From contig CANQPZ010000002.1 of assembly GCA_947625895.1 (NCBI GenBank), positions 1-61,614 of the forward strand: DNA of 61,614 nucleotides. Direction: 5' to 3'. Shown here in pieces: positions 4,989-35,724 of the stretch. Made by a program: the position numbers and the translations under genes. The stretch's first letter is position 1, and every line of letters begins with the position of its first letter. The notes beneath the pieces are model-generated. The model saw nothing but the letters and a program-made list of their open reading frames with translations. It was not told where the DNA came from and ran no database searches. Source of the stretch: an uncultured Clostridia bacterium. Its GTDB lineage: Bacteria > Bacillota > Clostridia > TANB77 > CAG-508.

Positions 4989-5672
4989 ATGAAAAGAGGA
5001 AAAAGATATCAAGAATCTGCTAAATTAGTAGATAGCACAAAAGTGTATGATGCAAAAGAGGCTTTAGAAATTATTGAAAAAATGCCAAAGCCAAAATTTG
5101 ATGAAACAATTGAACTTCATGTAAAATTAGGTGTTGATTCAAAACATGCTGATCAACAAGTTAGAGGAACAGTTGTATTACCTAATGGAACTGGTAAAAC
5201 TCAAAAAGTTTTAGTATTTGCTAAAGGTGATAAAGCTAAAGAAGCTGAAGAAGCTGGAGCTGATTATGTTGGAGCAGAAGAATTAATACCAAAAATTGAA
5301 AAAGAAAATTGGTTTGATTATGACGTTATAGTTGCAACACCAGATATGATGGGTGTTATTGGTAGATTAGGAAAGGTCTTAGGACCTAAAGGATTAATGC
5401 CAAACCCAAAATCAGGAACAGTTACAATGGACGTTAAAAAAGCAATTTCAGAAATCAAATCTGGTAAAGTTGAATACAGATTAGATAAAACAAATATCAT
5501 ACATTTAGGATTTGGAAAAGTTTCTTTTGGAGCTGAAAAATTATTAGAAAACTATAAAACAATAATTGAAGCTATAGAAAAAGCTAAACCAGCAGCTGCA
5601 AAAGGACAATACATTAAAAGCGTATCAATTTCTACAACAATGGGACCTGGCTTATATGTAAATGAAAAATAG
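4989..5672 (+). CDS. rplA: 50S ribosomal protein L1
   Basis: [15 protein letters not shown]... is a typical L1 sequence. AAGGAGG lies just upstream of ATG 4989. The track start 4923 is an in-frame upstream extension. Confidence 0.92.
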
Positions 5673-5679
5673 AAAAATA

Positions 5680-5790
5680 TTAACCTAAGACAGTAGGCAA
5701 AAAAAGAAGTCCTACCGAGGTAAAAAAATGTGAAGTGTTATATAGATAAACTTCAATTTGCCTCGGTTGGCGAATTGAAGTTTTTTAATT
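5680..5790 (+). promoter_or_regulatory. ribosomal protein L10 (rplJ) leader with attenuator terminator
   Basis: A structured 150-nt gap lies between rplA and rplJ. CCTACCGAGG (5711-5720) can pair with CCTCGG (5761-5766). The alternative is the hairpin CTTCAATT(5751-5758)/AATTGAAG(5773-5780) followed by T6. This is the position and architecture of the Firmicute L10 leader. Confidence 0.55.
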
Positions 5791-5820
5791 TTTTAATTTT
5801 AATAAATAGGAGGTGTAATT

Positions 5821-6926: not shown

Positions 6927-8756
6927 ATGAAAAAACAGAAAAAAACATCAAATAATCTAATACGGGAGGTGATAAATCTTTTAGTTAAATTCTTCAAATC
7001 TTACGGACTTTCACATGAAATGATAAATATTCCTAAGAATTTAAAATTTATGGGATATAAAGTAGGTCTTATGAGTCTGGGAATCACTGTTGTTACTCTA
7101 ATATTCTCTTTTATGCTTAAGGCAACAAATACTCTTATAGAGTATAGGTTTATTTTACTGGGAATTATACTTTTTATGCTCTATCGTGGACAAGAAATTG
7201 TCAGGCAATCGTTCATTCTTTTTGAACAATCTGAAGGCGAGAAGTTTAGCTTGATCTTTGATGACGAGATAGTCTTTAGAGGTAGCCAGATAATAGGGAA
7301 AACTGCAAATCGTGTTTTAAAGTATGATGAACAAAACCAATTATACATGTTAATGTCAAATGAGTCTGTACTAAATACAATCAAAAACTACTTGAAGAAT
7401 TTTTGGCAACTGAAAGTACAACACATATTTGATCTTTGCGAAATGATTAGTATCATCATTATGTTAGTAGCTGCCATCATAACGAACACAAGCATAAAGC
7501 AAATTATTTTCATACCTATGATTTTTGCATTTGTAGCAATCTCTTTCTTCAGTTCGGCGTATATAAGTATGAATAGAGAAGTGTTTTACAAGATGCACAA
7601 AAAATTTAATAATGAGCAATCAATAATTGTTAATGATCTACTTCGAGTGCCTGCAATAGTAAATGCTGATTTGGAAATGAGAATAAATAAGTTCCAAAAG
7701 ACTGTGATAGAAAGCAATAAAAACGTTGTGAACTTTCATAAAAAATTGAATATATCACGGTTAGTGGTTACTATTATCGAAACATTTAGTCAGTATGGCA
7801 TAATAATAGTTTACCTACTCGGAGTTGAATGGAACAGTATTGATTTAGCAACCATAACTCAAATCACAGCTACACTTCTTATCGTTGAGACCGCATTAAG
7901 TCAAATTAGATCGATTGTGACTGTTTTGGAACGTCATAATGACAGATTAGTTACAATTGAATCAGAAGAAAAGGATTTGTCATTAATTTTAAATGTATAT
8001 AATACAGAATCTAAAAAGACTTCAACAGCTAAAAGAGTTGATGAGATAGAAATAAAGCCTTTTTCGATTCGGTATTTAGAAGAGTCAGAAAATGATAGAC
8101 CTTTCTCTTTAATATCAAACAAAATAATAAAAATTAGATCCGGTGAAATTGCTATTTTATATGGTCCATCGGGCAGCGGTAAATCAACATTCATGAAAAT
8201 GCTGACAGAAAGAATTAGACTAGAGAAAAGTACAGACATTCCAGCAACATCTAGATTCTTATTCTATGATGAAAAGTTACGATTTGGTAGTCTATGCATA
8301 TTCGAAGAATTATTCTGCTGCGAAGAAAATCCAGACCTGGCAAAAATGCAAAATATCCTAGAAAACATGCATTTATGGCATGAAATAAAGGCAAACTGCA
8401 TTGATGTCTGGAAATGGATGAAAGAAAAACAGTATGAGTCGTTATCGAATGGTCAGAAGCAGAGGTTAATAATAGCAAAAATGTTGTATTGGTTGGATGA
8501 CAACATTGATGTTATGGTCTTAGACGAATGCACTTCTGGATTAGATGACAAATCAGAACTGAGCGATGTAGCAGACGCAGAAAAAATTCTGGAATACATT
8601 GTAAGATTTGCTAATTCTGACAGAAAGCGAATAGTAATCATTTCGACACACCAAAACATTGACGGATTTAAGCAAAGAATAGCAAAAGAGTGTACAGCGA
8701 TTAGAAATCTGCAATTCGTGAAGGAAGGAGAATTGAACATAGTTAAAGAGATTTAA
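6927..8756 (+). CDS. orphan ABC half-transporter (N-terminal multi-TM domain fused to an ABC ATPase)
   Basis: Walker A GPSGSGKST, signature LSNGQKQR, Walker B VMVLDECTSGLDD and H-loop ISTHQ in the C-terminal third. The N-terminal ~330 aa contain several hydrophobic helices. Codon choice (CTG, CGG, TCG used) and GC are visibly higher than in the neighbours. Confidence 0.8.
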   Translation: MKKQKKTSNNLIREVINLLVKFFKSYGLSHEMINIPKNLKFMGYKVGLMSLGITVVTLIFSFMLKATNTLIEYRFILLGIILFMLYRGQEIVRQSFILFEQSEGEKFSLIFDDEIVFRGSQIIGKTANRVLKYDEQNQLYMLMSNESVLNTIKNYLKNFWQLKVQHIFDLCEMISIIIMLVAAIITNTSIKQIIFIPMIFAFVAISFFSSAYISMNREVFYKMHKKFNNEQSIIVNDLLRVPAIVNADLEMRINKFQKTVIESNKNVVNFHKKLNISRLVVTIIETFSQYGIIIVYLLGVEWNSIDLATITQITATLLIVETALSQIRSIVTVLERHNDRLVTIESEEKDLSLILNVYNTESKKTSTAKRVDEIEIKPFSIRYLEESENDRPFSLISNKIIKIRSGEIAILYGPSGSGKSTFMKMLTERIRLEKSTDIPATSRFLFYDEKLRFGSLCIFEELFCCEENPDLAKMQNILENMHLWHEIKANCIDVWKWMKEKQYESLSNGQKQRLIIAKMLYWLDDNIDVMVLDECTSGLDDKSELSDVADAEKILEYIVRFANSDRKRIVIISTHQNIDGFKQRIAKECTAIRNLQFVKEGELNIVKEI

Positions 8757-22610: not shown

Positions 22611-22855
22611 AGTAAGTAATTCATTCCCTTCATAAAATTTATGGTAATTATAACATAATTTATATAAAAAAAATAGAGAAAGTCAAAAAATAGTCGAAAA
22701 AAGGCGACGAAAAAAGCTTTACAACAAGAGAAAAAGGTTTTAATATGTAATCATTAAATTGCAATTTATTTCAAAGAGGTTAAATCTAACCATTCAAAAT
22801 TTTTTAAATTCTAAAATTTCCCAATAATTTTAAAATAAAAAGAAAGGAGCACACG

Positions 22856-23380
22856 ATATATAAGAAGCGAAAAATAATAATAATTTTTATTATTTTTGTA
22901 CTAATCACAACACAAATATTAATTCCTTTATCATTTAGTTTTTCACCTAAAATTAAATACATATACAAAGATGTAGATAAAGACAAAAATGAAAAAGAAG
23001 AAATGATATGGAATATAAAAATACCAAAGATAGGACTAGATGCAAATATAATTGATGGCACAAGTCAAGATAATTTAAATAAATATGTTGCACACTTTGA
23101 AGAAAGCGCTTATTTTAAAGGAAACGTGTGCTTGGCAGCACATAACAGAGGATATGATGTAAATTACTTTAAAGATATAAAACTATTAGAAATTGGAGAT
23201 GAAATTATATATCAATTTAAAAGTCTACGATTAAAATACATTGTAAATAGTACAAAGATAATTAATGACACAGATATTTACGTTATAAATCCAAGTAAAG
23301 AAAACAAGATAACATTAATAACATGTGTTGAAAATGAACCAGAAAAAAGAAGATGTATTCAAGGAAGTTTAAAAATATGA
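22856..23380 (+). CDS. sortase-family transpeptidase, probable non-canonical (ATA) start
   Basis: Catalytic TLITC motif, AAHNRG and beta-barrel core. The track ORF starts at ATG 23003. The same frame is open from 22835 and encodes YKKRK plus the TM anchor IIIIFIIFVLITTQILIPLSF. AAAGGAG (22843-22849) lies 6 nt before ATA 22856. Confidence 0.6.
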   Translation: MYKKRKIIIIFIIFVLITTQILIPLSFSFSPKIKYIYKDVDKDKNEKEEMIWNIKIPKIGLDANIIDGTSQDNLNKYVAHFEESAYFKGNVCLAAHNRGYDVNYFKDIKLLEIGDEIIYQFKSLRLKYIVNSTKIINDTDIYVINPSKENKITLITCVENEPEKRRCIQGSLKI

Positions 23381-23393
23381 AAGGAAGAATGAA

Positions 23394-24614
23394 ATGAAAA
23401 TAAAGAAAATTTTAATAATTATGCTAGGAATAATTATGCTTATAAGTTCAAACTTTGTATATGCCACATTCAAGATAGATAAAGCAAGTCTATATAGTAA
23501 AGGAGAATGCAGTCCATTATTTAAAATTTCTACAAATGGAAATCCAATGACAATATCAAAAATATTTTATAGCTATAATGGAAAAGAATATCCAGCATAC
23601 TGCGTAAACAAAGAATTAGATGGAGTAGAAAAATTAGGAAGTTATGATGTCACTATTGAAGAAGCGGTTGAAAATCAAATGATTAGGAGAGCTATAATTA
23701 ATGGATATCCATATAAAACTCCTCAAGAATTAAATGTAGCAAATGAAGATGAAGCTTTTGCTGCAACAAAACAAGCGATATATTGCATATTATATGGATT
23801 TGATGCAAATAATTATGCAAGATATGTTCCAATAGGAGAAGCAGGAGAAAGAACACTAGCAGCAATAAAACGAATTGTTAATATTGCCAAAACAGACACA
23901 AGTACTAAGCCAAGCAGCCAAATAACTATAAAAGAAACTGGCAATTGGAAAGTAGATGATAAAGATAAAAATTATGTAAGTAAAGTTTTCCAAGTAGGAG
24001 CACAAGCAAATATTAAAGATTATACGATTACAATTAATAATGCTTCAAATAATGAACTAAAAGTTACTGATTTAAATGGAAATGAAATCACAAAAACTAG
24101 TGAAAAACAATTTAAAATAATGATACCACTAAGATCTTTAGAAAACGATGGAACATTTGAAATAAATATAAATGGAGAGGTGGCTACAATGCCAATTTTA
24201 TATGGAAAATCAGGAAATAGCACATCACAAAATTATGTATTAGCAGGTGATATATATGAAATTGGAAATGGAAATGCAAAAGTAAATTATTATAAAAATA
24301 GAAGTAAAGTAAAGATAATAAAAAAAGATAATGTAACAGGAAGAGAACTTGAAGGGATAAAATTTAGAATACTAAATGAAAATAATGAAGAAATATATAC
24401 TGATTTGATGACAGATAAAAATGGAGAAATAATCATAGAAGGTATATTACCTGGTAAATATTATTTAGAAGAAGTAGAAACAAAAGAAGGATATAAAAAA
24501 TTAAAAGAAAGAATAGAATTTGAGGTTAAGTTTAATGAAGAATTAGAGCTAGAAGTAATGAATGAAAAAATACCAGAAAAAACCATAAAAAAATTACCTG
24601 TTACAGGTATGTAA
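23394..24614 (+). CDS. surface adhesin with a thioester (TQXA-like) domain and a Cna-B/SpaA-type domain; sorting signal truncated right after LPVTG
   Basis: Signal peptide. YPAYCVNKE ... INGYPYKT ... ATKQAIY resembles the Cys-Gln thioester domain. KIIKKDNVTGRELEGIKFRI...GKYYLEEVETKEGY is a Cna-B-type fold. The ORF ends KKLPVTGM-stop, with no hydrophobic or charged tail. Confidence 0.7.
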   Translation: MKIKKILIIMLGIIMLISSNFVYATFKIDKASLYSKGECSPLFKISTNGNPMTISKIFYSYNGKEYPAYCVNKELDGVEKLGSYDVTIEEAVENQMIRRAIINGYPYKTPQELNVANEDEAFAATKQAIYCILYGFDANNYARYVPIGEAGERTLAAIKRIVNIAKTDTSTKPSSQITIKETGNWKVDDKDKNYVSKVFQVGAQANIKDYTITINNASNNELKVTDLNGNEITKTSEKQFKIMIPLRSLENDGTFEININGEVATMPILYGKSGNSTSQNYVLAGDIYEIGNGNAKVNYYKNRSKVKIIKKDNVTGRELEGIKFRILNENNEEIYTDLMTDKNGEIIIEGILPGKYYLEEVETKEGYKKLKERIEFEVKFNEELELEVMNEKIPEKTIKKLPVTGM

Positions 24615-24623
24615 AAGGGGAAA

Positions 24624-24653
24624 CCCCCGCAATAGAAAGATCAATTGCGGGGG
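24624..24653 (-). terminator. hairpin terminator of the 113-aa gene (minus strand)
   Basis: CCCCCGCAAT / ATTGCGGGGG is a perfect 10-bp stem with a 10-nt loop. On the minus strand it is followed by TTTCCCCTTTT. Confidence 0.55.
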
Positions 24654-24666
24654 AGACCCTGGAGCC

Positions 24667-25008
24667 TTATCCTGCTTTTCGCATAGTTTTCACGAGAGCA
24701 TCAAGCTCTTTCTGCGAGACATACAGCACCATCTTGTTCGCATATATCTGCAGCTTTTCCAGATCAGGCTTTTCTGCCTTGAGCGGATTTGCTGAATATG
24801 CTTCGACGGCCTTCTTGCATTCCTTCTCATACAGCCACTTCCTGGATGGATCGACACTGTTGAGTGACTCACCATACACAACGACTGTGTGATCAGCGTC
24901 TTTTGTTGTCGTACACTTCTGCTGCGAGATCAGCCGATGAATAGCCATTTGCCGGATGTCAGACTCCGTGGAGGAGAATCCGTTAATTGTTACCTTTCCT
25001 GTTGTCAT
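24667..25008 (-). CDS. hypothetical 113-aa protein in a GC-rich insert
   Basis: GGAGGTG lies 6 nt upstream of the ATG. The gene has its own promoter and terminator. About 45% GC against a ~27% background. No family recognised. Confidence 0.7.
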   Translation of the reverse strand: MTTGKVTINGFSSTESDIRQMAIHRLISQQKCTTTKDADHTVVVYGESLNSVDPSRKWLYEKECKKAVEAYSANPLKAEKPDLEKLQIYANKMVLYVSQKELDALVKTMRKAG

Positions 25009-25056
25009 AGTGACACCTCCATAACATAATGTAAAAAATTTTTGGTTACAACTATT

Positions 25057-25130
25057 ATTATATCATAAAATAGGCAGAATATCAACTAACTCAAAATTTA
25101 GTTGACATAATTTTAAAAGAGTAATATAAT
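25057..25130. promoter_or_regulatory. divergent promoter pair with a shared palindromic operator
   Basis: Plus strand: TTGACA (25102-25107), 17 nt, TATAAT (25125-25130). Minus strand: TTGATA (25085-25080), 17 nt, TATAAT (25062-25057) with a TGa extension. Inverted repeat TCAACTAA (25082-25089), N8, TTAGTTGA (25098-25105) overlaps both -35 boxes. Confidence 0.65.
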
Positions 25131-25185
25131 ATTACCACGTAACTATAAACAACATCCACATCTTTTAATGAAGGAGGGAACGCAT

Positions 25186-25410
25186 ATGAAGTTAACTACC
25201 ATTAATCCTAAAGATGTTGGAATCGCCTGCAGTTCCATTAGCGAATCCAAAGCATTAACTCTATTAGAAAGGAAAGAACCTTTTATTTTACGGTTAAGAC
25301 CTAGAGAGTTCTACAAGGATGTCAGCGCGGAAGATTTAAAGCAGGCCAAAAGGCTAAAGGACATGGGAATTTATGAGTGCTGGGAATTTTACGAACCTAT
25401 TGTTAAATGA
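25186..25410 (+). CDS. hypothetical 74-aa protein in a GC-rich insert
   Basis: AGGAGG lies 8 nt upstream of ATG 25186 (the track start 25168 overlaps the SD). About 40% GC. No family recognised. Confidence 0.65.
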   Translation: MKLTTINPKDVGIACSSISESKALTLLERKEPFILRLRPREFYKDVSAEDLKQAKRLKDMGIYECWEFYEPIVK

Positions 25411-25422
25411 TGGCCTATGAAA

Positions 25423-25454
25423 GAGCGGTAATATAAACGAATATATTACCGCTC
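25423..25454 (+). terminator. hairpin after the 74-aa gene
   Basis: GAGCGGTAATATA / TATATTACCGCTC is a 13-bp perfect stem with a 6-nt loop. The T-tail is weak. Confidence 0.45.
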
Positions 25455-25469
25455 ACTCTACTTAAAAAT

Positions 25470-35301: not shown

Positions 35302-35724
35302 ATGGTACCTGAACAGAAAAACAGACTCGACATCCTGCAAATGAACCAAGCAATTTACAAAACACTGCAAACTAAAGAGAGGAAGGTAGATGGAGAAGAG
35401 ATATGTGACAAACATGCTAAAAGGATATGGCATGAAATAGAAAAAGAATTACTCTATTTAGCACATGATGGAAAACTTGTAAACTATCATGTTGCAAGTA
35501 TTGATCTTTATTCTGCAAGCAGAGTTATTGTCACATACCACAAGAAGAGTTCTGAAGAGTTAAAGTCTTACGATGTACCAAAGGAGGTAGACGCTAACAG
35601 GATTTTCATCCGTATGTGTCTATTAGCTGAAAAAGCTGGATTTAGTATGGCACCAAGTCATCAGCTAAGCTCCAGAGGAAGAATAACTTGGTGGATAAGA
35701 TTTGCCGATACTCAAGGCAAATAA
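35302..35724 (+). CDS. hypothetical 140-aa protein in a compositionally atypical single-gene cassette
   Basis: GAGGAG SD. About 38-40% GC with non-host codon choice (CTG, CTC, GAC, CAC). Has its own promoter and terminator. No family recognised. Confidence 0.7.
   Translation: MVPEQKNRLDILQMNQAIYKTLQTKERKVDGEEICDKHAKRIWHEIEKELLYLAHDGKLVNYHVASIDLYSASRVIVTYHKKSSEELKSYDVPKEVDANRIFIRMCLLAEKAGFSMAPSHQLSSRGRITWWIRFADTQGK

Follow-up and report, generated by a model that had tools for sequence, protein, structure and literature searches.

Prophage morons are autonomous single-gene units that carry their own promoter and terminator, have an atypical composition, and are unrelated to their neighbors. 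The immunity proteins of polymorphic toxin, bacteriocin, and contact-dependent inhibition (CDI) systems, orphan ones included, are small, soluble, and strain-polymorphic, often odd in composition and unannotated, and the staphylococcal agr and Bacillus comQXP pherotypes are ancient allele classes that cross clonal backgrounds with abrupt borders in a conserved locus. Replacement flexible genomic islands, in turn, show raised synonymous divergence at their borders, and their exchange has been attributed to homologous recombination in conserved flanks and their diversity to frequency-dependent selection (Lopez-Perez, Martin-Cuadrado & Rodriguez-Valera 2014; PMC4033161). Here, we describe a locus that resembles each of these systems in part, namely positions 24613-25465 of a 61,614-nucleotide (nt) stretch of DNA from an uncultured Clostridia bacterium (contig CANQPZ010000002.1; hereafter "the window"). 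This segment, rich in guanine and cytosine (GC), lies between a thioester adhesin gene and pflA, and carries a gene of 113 amino acids (aa) on the minus strand, g113 (family gA), and a gene of 74 aa on the plus strand, g74 (family gC). Comparison with the sequences of its relatives suggests that the segment is one version of a small islet that is old and lineage-specific, and not a recent insertion. We consider it very probable that its evolution is well described as that of a clade-wide islet with deep, stable alleles and cassette-wise replacement.

The islet occupies one site throughout the clade, in loci of low-GC (~27%) gut Clostridia from human, rabbit, and other gut metagenomes. Every fetched locus has the gene order pflB, pflA, g74 and a third small gene where these are present, g113, thioester adhesin, sortase, DUF4364, SpoU methylase, and mfd, and a g113 homolog stands between pflA and the adhesin gene in all flanked loci (L003-L010, L012-16, L018, L019, and L021-28). 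Among the ~17 lineages compared, in which adhesin identity falls to 46%, pflA identity to 60-77%, and pflB identity to 84%, the g113 homolog is always present, and in every one of them its GC content is 0.38-0.47 and its GC content at third codon positions (GC3) 0.36-0.54, with flanks at GC 0.22-0.31 and GC3 ~0.12. Adhesin-anchored sampling was added because most loci had been fetched through g113. L006, fetched via an adhesin query alone, has a g113 homolog, and among 34 contigs (24 and 10) with two adhesin variants of one species, a 99-aa g113 homolog was found in all 32 that were long enough; no empty adhesin-pflA site was seen in this sampling (L006 and 32 of the 34 contigs). A preliminary description of the window had taken the segment for a horizontal insert, implying that relatives would have an empty site and an intact LPXTG gene. 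Instead, the islet lies at the same site in every relative recovered (~17 lineages and 32 contigs), and the adhesin ends in LPVTG[M/K]-stop in 17 of 17 lineages (LPVTGK-stop in L006). Since this ending is the same in all 17 lineages, the missing hydrophobic tail is a conserved feature and not the damage of an insertion. No carrier of the islet was found in plasmid, phage, and IMG/VR collections (four IMG/VR scans, with blastn and tblastn against phages and plasmids). The adhesin is also of note in its own right, as its sortase motif forms the extreme C-terminus, without a hydrophobic segment or charged tail; this would make it an unusual, clade-conserved sortase substrate.

At this fixed site, g113 varies to an extent that its neighbors do not, as seen from synonymous divergence per site (dS) and amino acid identity in four conspecific pairs:

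Window and L003: pflA dS 0.07, adhesin dS 0.34, g113 identity 60%, g113 dS 1.26.
L013 and L015: pflA dS 0.04, adhesin dS 0.04, g113 identity 55%, g113 dS saturated.
L010 and L019: pflA dS 0.006, adhesin dS 0.06, g113 identity 61%, g113 dS saturated.
L018 and L019: pflA dS 0.03, adhesin dS 0.07, g113 identity 82%, g113 dS 2.5.

The proportion of synonymous differences (pS) in g113 reaches 0.6-0.96 in four conspecific pairs, with a ratio of nonsynonymous to synonymous divergence (dN/dS) of 0.05-0.25, which shows g113 to be protein-coding and under purifying selection. Sliding identity falls from 97-100% in the flanks to 40-65% over the g113 open reading frame (ORF) and its hairpin; the cliff begins right after the adhesin stop codon, and the other border of the variable block lies near the g113 start codon or in its 5' untranslated region (UTR). 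We interpret g113, together with its terminator, as a replaceable cassette that has been swapped at a fixed site between near-identical strains. The cassettes of the islet seem to change independently, because L012 and L013 differ in the block of the third small gene, gB (55-65% nucleotide identity), but not in the g113 block (~97% identical), with identical neighbors. gB itself is hypervariable in this comparison.

Within one species, at least six g113 allele classes were found, with 56-87% identity among them. In six contigs that carry adhesin variant P0032 and stem from different samples, g113 is one allele throughout (98-100% identity), and adhesin variant P0033 goes with another allele, which does not differ between the two contigs compared. 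The recurrence of one allele across many samples indicates that the alleles are old and stable and that hypermutation is not ongoing. Distances between alleles are 0.40-0.45 within species, nearing the 0.5-0.65 found between species. The genes at the borders of the islet differ as well between the window and L003 (sortase dS 0.52, adhesin 0.34, and pflA 0.07), and such differences are smaller in other pairs. Two further observations concern the surroundings of the cassettes. The pflA gene of L012 (~1376-2092) has only 74% protein identity to that of L013 (dS 0.65), with sortase and g74 identical and the adhesin at 98%; this looks like a separate recombination import that begins inside pflA. 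In addition, TTGTAACC was noticed by eye just downstream of the g113 -10 box both in the window (25030-25050) and in the distant L013 (~7905-7925), and the remainder of the g113 leader around it differs between the two.

The islet is modular, in that the adhesin-pflA interval holds one to three small genes from three orphan families, gA, gB, and gC, which are unrelated to one another and to a further orphan at 35302 in the window. Family gA (g113) is present in every lineage recovered. Family gC (g74) occurs, always in the same position, in the window, L003-5, L012-15, L020, L022, L026, and L028, and homologs are absent from 7 of the 17 lineages (L006, L008, L010, L016, L018, L019, and L021). 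Family gB (~74-84 aa, on the strand of g113) is found in L008, L012-15, L022, and L028, for example at 7589-7813 of L013 and 2748-2972 of L008, and is absent from the window. It has its own Shine-Dalgarno (SD) sequence and terminator as well as a characteristic motif, (T/K/C)GxxLSxS..xxxIxxG..A.....A...FG..F..V.P..., and it separates g74 from g113 in L012-15, L022, and L028. All three islet genes are GC-elevated (GC3 0.29-0.54), and each is predicted to be transcribed separately, from a sigma-A promoter of its own, with a strong SD and a hairpin. The autoregulated two-gene module that had been proposed for g113 and g74 does not agree with a survey of their co-occurrence, in which 7 of 17 lineages lack g74 and gB intervenes in others, and the suggestion of a repressor/effector or toxin/immunity pair found no toxin, antitoxin, or defense match for either protein or for 24 members of the g113 family. 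Furthermore, g74 is not hypervariable, its dS being similar to that of the flanks. A likeness of g74 to HTH_17 or excisionases was considered and rejected, as none of eight family members matches any helix-turn-helix (HTH) family at E up to 1, and its profile gave chance-level matches only against PDB. Upstream of its g113, L021 carries a 97-aa gene with a weak likeness to the g113 family in its first 28 residues; its status as a g113 paralog was not upheld (hhalign E 0.005, probability 6.7%), and it may be a decayed tandem duplicate.

Both proteins were initially described as orphans, and this has been borne out: neither g113 nor g74 has a match in Pfam, NCBIfam, PHROG, or PADLOC, and PDB was equally empty. 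A word-indexed search of 5.8 billion proteins returned, for g113, itself and one 58%-identical protein and, for g74, itself and one 89%-identical protein. An HMMER scan of 1.84 billion cluster representatives yielded 25 matches to g113, 24 of them genuine family representatives (P0004, which stands for the window's own cluster, and 23 beyond it), with a profile built from two sequences only, by which distant relatives could be missed. The spurious match, P0028, is a repetitive surface protein (1617 aa, with 6 matched stretches), and P0017, P0008, and P0023, which seemed to be longer proteins, are g113 ORFs over-extended by gene calling. Members of the family are ~90-130 aa in size and share the motif RLIxxQKCxxxKD..HT..YGxDxNxLDxSRKWLYE...RIxANKxVLYVNxxEL, with L26, C32, G46, R56, W58, and K92 invariant. 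The 24 members gave no recurrent match in Pfam, PHROGs, PADLOC, or NCBIfam, nor did the g113 sequence profile find anything in PDB. With an alignment of these 24 sequences, AlphaFold2 modeled g113 at a predicted local distance difference test score (pLDDT) of 90.7 and a predicted template modeling score (pTM) of 0.76; this alignment was used instead of one of two sequences, which had given a poor model (pLDDT 66). The model runs from a helix through a beta-hairpin, two helices, and a strand to a final helix. As the protein has no signal peptide or hydrophobic segment and a grand average of hydropathy (GRAVY) of -0.54, it is predicted to be a soluble alpha/beta protein. Foldseek found no match to the model in PDB (best E 1.2) or BFVD (best E 0.46), and g113 represents a new protein family without a detectable structural relative in these two collections.

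In the window, the islet and its left neighbor comprise the following features:

23394..24614, plus strand: thioester-domain (TED)/SpaA adhesin gene (Pfam TED 1.4e-11, SpaA 2e-17).
24595..24614, plus strand: 3' end of the adhesin gene, coding for ...KKLPVTGM-stop; left conserved border of the variable block.
24624..24653, no strand assigned: GC-rich hairpin CCCCCGCAAT...ATTGCGGGGG, an inverted repeat between the convergent adhesin and g113 genes.
24667..25008, minus strand: g113 (gA), 113 aa, core gene of the islet (ORF list).
25014..25020, minus strand: g113 Shine-Dalgarno sequence GGAGGTG, 5 nt upstream of the ATG (read from the sequence).
25057..25085, minus strand: g113 promoter TTGATA-17-TG-n-TATAAT (promoter scan 11/12).
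25079..25108, no strand assigned: inverted repeat ATATCAACTAA-N8-TTAGTTGACAT, spanning both -35 boxes.
25102..25130, plus strand: g74 promoter TTGACA-17-TATAAT (promoter scan 12/12).
25173..25178, plus strand: g74 Shine-Dalgarno sequence GGAGGG, 7 nt upstream of the ATG (read from the sequence).
25186..25410, plus strand: g74 (gC), 74 aa, optional second unit of the islet (ORF list).
25423..25454, no strand assigned: 13-bp perfect hairpin GAGCGGTAATATA/TATATTACCGCTC, downstream of g74 and just before the pflA stop codon (25470).

Much of this architecture had been noted in the preliminary description. The two divergent ORFs with strong SDs and near-consensus promoters (12/12 and 11/12) are all present, as is the perfect inverted repeat over both -35 boxes, and no integrase, transposase, or meaningful flanking direct repeat was found around the islet within the window. 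Its hairpin terminators stand only in part: hairpins are present at both ends of the islet, but a simple terminator scan scored neither of them (24624-24653 and 25423-25454) as canonical. The former, followed on the minus strand by TTTCCCCTTTT, is probably a two-way terminator; it lies inside the low-identity block as part of the variable cassette, and most lineages have a differently sequenced hairpin in its position. The LPVTG-coding bases also form a small hairpin, with a T-run after it on the minus strand. The latter hairpin, which is conserved in L003, is probably the terminator of g74. An alternative g74 start at 25168 (80 aa) overlaps the SD and is not used by homologs. The g113 promoter region is 83-92% conserved between the window and L003, while the g113 ORF diverges. 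Both units are probably strongly expressed.

The inverted repeat had been regarded as a shared operator. Its perfect 8-bp core, TCAACTAA-N8-TTAGTTGA (25082-25089 and 25098-25105), extends to 11-nt arms (25079-25089 and 25098-25108) that are 91% complementary. The palindrome is not beyond chance: the window contains 103 perfect 8-bp inverted repeats with a spacer of at most 12, 8.4% of shuffles of the 177-nt divergent region yield such a repeat, and 4 of the 8 bp in each arm are the facing -35 boxes themselves. The two -35 boxes are spaced 16 nt apart in the window, L003, and L020 alike, but the sequence between them is not retained, with a dyad of 8 bp in the window, one of 6 bp in L003, another dyad at an offset in L020, and none in L026; L006, which has no g74, carries just the g113-side half, ATATCAACTAA, upstream of g113. 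The lack of sequence conservation in these four loci means that a shared operator, although possible in the window's own lineage, is not supported by conservation. Perhaps loss of gB in the window put the g113 and g74 promoters back to back; the partly palindromic sequence that resulted might, or might not, serve as the binding site of a regulator.

The composition and codon usage of the islet are foreign-looking. Scanned in 200-nt intervals, GC is 0.23-0.24 up to 24599 and 0.465-0.495 across 24600-24999, directly past the adhesin stop codon (24612-24614), then 0.27 in the promoter region (25000-25199), 0.32-0.395 on the 74-aa gene, and at most 0.29 from 25400, which agrees with the abrupt rise and the return to background before pflA in the initial account. 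In 300-nt intervals, the islet is the top GC peak of the 61.6-kb window (z = 5.5). The overall GC of g113 is 0.47 vs 0.27 in the host, and GC3 is 0.54 for g113 and 0.39 for g74, with a mean of 0.14 (standard deviation 0.035) for 46 long ORFs of the window. Both genes also depart strongly from the window's genes in a codon-similarity index (z = -9.3 for g113 and -6.2 for g74), and rare codons, of which the host genes use <3 per 1000, account for 27% of the codons of g113 and 15% of those of g74 vs 2.3% in host genes. The islet sequence is real; it is repeated in three independent assemblies (L001, L002, and L031), with at most one base different, in the terminator hairpin. An exact look-up of the window's adhesin returned the same strain only. 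A second gene of odd composition was observed at 35302-35724 of the window, a 140-aa orphan ORF with no Pfam match (GC ~0.37, codon index z = -4.9, and 10% rare codons). This gene is equipped with a promoter-like site (TTGAAA-17-TGgTATAAT), an SD, and a hairpin with a T-run terminator of its own, and its relatives were found in same-strain contigs only.

How might such a locus arise and persist? We propose that homologous recombination within the conserved adhesin 3' end and promoter region on either side exchanges g113 cassettes, and that balancing (frequency-dependent) selection preserves the alleles, as in flexible islands of the replacement type. g113 would then be a highly expressed cytoplasmic strain-specificity factor, perhaps one that provides immunity to a toxin, or that serves in the exclusion or sensing of phages or mobile elements. 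Balancing selection on a cytoplasmic protein would indicate a role in conflict or recognition, and such a role fits the extreme allelic variability of g113. Because no partner gene was found, however, this function is a guess, which we offer tentatively and would not ourselves call likely. Taken as a whole, the explanation by an old islet, replaceable g113 cassettes, balancing selection, and a role in conflict is the one we favor, with moderate confidence.

Several points weigh against this explanation. Most loci were fetched through g113 itself, and the absence of empty sites is based on L006, L003-5, and, from one species, the 34 contigs sampled via the adhesin. Neither a toxin, receptor, or phage gene nor any other partner of g113 was identified, and no donor pool for its alleles was found. 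In contrast to the exposed products of classical replacement islands, g113 lacks both a signal peptide and a membrane segment. It is from the identity cliffs that recombination is inferred. Finally, a model of replaceable cassettes does not account for the GC and codon anomaly, and the alleles of g113 retain their GC3 of 0.36-0.54 despite saturated synonymous divergence.

The extent of this last discrepancy was estimated with a two-state decay model, with an equilibrium GC3 of 0.12 and a starting GC3 of 0.5-0.9, which predicts a GC3 of 0.18-0.37 after 0.65 substitutions per synonymous site per lineage (a pairwise dS of 1.3) and of 0.12-0.15 after 1.25. The alleles nevertheless keep their GC3, and their divergence therefore did not accumulate neutrally in these hosts: either they come from an unsampled mid-GC pool, or selection acts on their composition. 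A mid-GC pool left no trace in the 1.84 billion representatives (with the two-sequence profile), IMG/VR, phages, or plasmids, and polarized substitutions within allele groups, sought as signs of GC-to-AT decay, offered too few sites. An actively maintained composition, in which selection on nucleotides or mRNA preserves the high GC of these small genes, could coexist with the replacement of cassettes under balancing selection. Such coding might throttle translation through rare codons, make it depend on rare tRNAs, or render message or DNA resistant to AT/AU-directed nucleases, and the anomaly would then be functional and not a remnant of transfer. The GC3 of 0.36-0.54 that all synonymously saturated alleles keep, where decay under host bias predicts 0.13-0.37, speaks for this possibility, as do the 27% of g113 codons that are rare in the host, the second autonomous orphan gene with odd codons at 35302-35724, and the lack of any higher-GC carrier in the 1.84 billion representatives or in viral, plasmid, and phage sets. 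Direct signs of such selection were not seen, however, and the same facts would follow if the alleles came from an unsampled reservoir of intermediate GC. Distant relatives may have been missed with the two-sequence profile. Moreover, synonymous sites are not conserved between alleles, so that no specific RNA structure is indicated, and Rfam finds nothing in the islet. We therefore regard a maintained composition as unlikely, if worth keeping in mind. It is tempting to go one step further and to speculate that g113 is the specificity determinant of an undescribed strain-recognition or immunity system with a new fold, whose GC-rich, rare-codon coding is kept by selection and is not a foreign leftover; such coding could, for example, tie translation to rare tRNAs or protect message or DNA from AT-directed nucleases. 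This combined idea is distinctly speculative, and we would expect it to fail.

The constant company of the adhesin gene, which g113 always adjoins in convergent orientation, raises the question of whether the islet is the domesticated relic of an old mobile element, perhaps the one that brought the adhesin and sortase, with small proteins that regulate or assist the adhesin and sortase and a variability that tracks the adhesin. Thioester adhesins and sortases are known as cargo of conjugative elements in Gram-positive bacteria. TED adhesins with LPXTG motifs are reported to occur in conjugation operons (PMC8092201), and the adhesin also evolves fast between species, with g113 and adhesin distances that correlate (Pearson 0.73). 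Within species, however, the two do not co-vary, as the adhesin is 94-99% identical and g113 55-87%. The GC of the adhesin and sortase is host-like (0.22-0.28), g113 converges on the adhesin gene and does not lie upstream of it as a regulator might, and no conjugation genes are nearby. A relic of this kind seems improbable to us.

Still less can be said for the original interpretation, in which a recent 0.85-kb horizontal insert cut off the tail of an LPXTG gene and brought with it an autoregulated two-gene switch governed by a shared palindrome. Its appeal lies in the foreign-looking GC and codon usage, the orphan status of both proteins, and the divergent near-consensus promoters with a palindrome on both -35 boxes. 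Yet every relative recovered has the islet at this site, down to an adhesin identity of 46%, next to an adhesin that ends in LPVTG[M/K]-stop everywhere, and neither mobility genes nor a mobile carrier accompany it. As for the switch, 7 of 17 lineages have no g74, a third gene parts it from g113 in others, the two genes evolve quite differently, and the palindrome is unconserved and within chance. We consider a recent insertion very unlikely.

Local GC-biased hypermutation in the g113 transcription unit would give both high GC and saturated synonymous divergence, and the variable block does correspond roughly to that unit, from 5'UTR to terminator; within one allele class, g113 dS (0.16) also exceeds that of the neighbors (0-0.055). 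The same allele nonetheless recurs at 98-100% identity in many independent samples with a common adhesin variant, L001, L002, and L031 match the window, g74 is GC-rich yet not hypervariable, and no reverse transcriptase, deaminase, or repeat template lies nearby, all of which makes this mechanism extremely improbable. Lastly, although structured RNAs typically stand out by their high GC where the genome is AT-rich, a noncoding structured RNA is almost certainly not the explanation, given a reading frame that alleles of 28-60% identity share, together with invariant residues, a dN/dS of 0.05-0.25, a confident AlphaFold2 model, a strong and correctly spaced SD, and no Rfam match at gathering score (with weak, chance-level matches at E up to 1).

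Some neighboring observations deserve mention. The sortase ORF of the window (22844-23380) encodes an N-terminal membrane segment for which there is no ATG, GTG, or TTG start. An in-frame KEHTIYKKRKIIIIFIIFVLITTQ... follows a good SD (AAAGGAG), and the start would there be ATA or ACG; the first canonical start, at 23003, gives a sortase of 125 aa without an anchor, and homologs are 169-185 aa long with an ATG start. In L010 (4574-7749), L019, and L032-L038, pflB is on the strand opposite to pflA, and the two are co-directional in the window and most lineages; we interpret the orientation in the L010/L019 species as a local inversion. A ribosomal protein L10 leader (RF00557, 63.4 bits) at 5666-5795 is the sole Rfam family at gathering score in the window.

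These findings illustrate that a compositional "island" need not be a recent insertion, as the one described here appears to be a fixed, clade-wide locus with swapped alleles, in a clade of common human and animal gut Clostridia. They also define three unannotated families of small proteins, one of which has a confident predicted fold without a match in PDB or BFVD. The presence of synonymously saturated alleles at GC3 0.4-0.5 in genomes at 0.12 is a puzzle that calls either for donors that have not been sampled or for selection acting on composition. If g113 were indeed a strain-specificity or immunity factor, it would provide a simple marker of, and a handle on, strain competition or phage resistance in uncultured gut Clostridia.

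Among known systems, replacement islands show a matching pattern. As in these islands, the locus is common to all strains and lies between conserved core genes, and its content is equivalent but divergent between near-identical strains, with sharp borders. The raised synonymous divergence of the bordering genes between the window and L003 would fit this pattern as well, with smaller differences in other pairs. However, replacement islands are multi-gene clusters for exposed structures that are targets of phages, whereas the unit of the islet is a single gene cassette of ~0.4 kb whose product appears cytoplasmic, the adjacent adhesin being the only surface protein. All g113 alleles are, in addition, homologous, and the foreign composition persists clade-wide. 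Like morons, the islet genes are autonomous, odd in composition, and unrelated to their neighbors, but they lie in a fixed position outside any recognizable prophage or mobile element, and no phage, plasmid, or viral relatives were found. The likeness to type II toxin-antitoxin and repressor-effector switches extends to two small genes and a dyad-symmetric control region; unlike type II toxin-antitoxin operons, the genes of the islet are divergent and separately terminated, the partner is often absent, and the dyad is unconserved. With immunity proteins, g113 has in common its small size, solubility, extreme polymorphism, odd composition, and lack of a family annotation. It differs from them in that no toxin gene or variable toxin tip adjoins it, the adhesin C-terminus being conserved within species, in that it converges on the adhesin gene and is not downstream of it, and in that all alleles keep the invariant residues. 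Finally, g113 is a single cytoplasmic protein without the signal peptide, processing enzyme, or receptor kinase of agr and comQXP, but it shares with these pherotypes its deep allele classes and their abrupt borders within a conserved locus.

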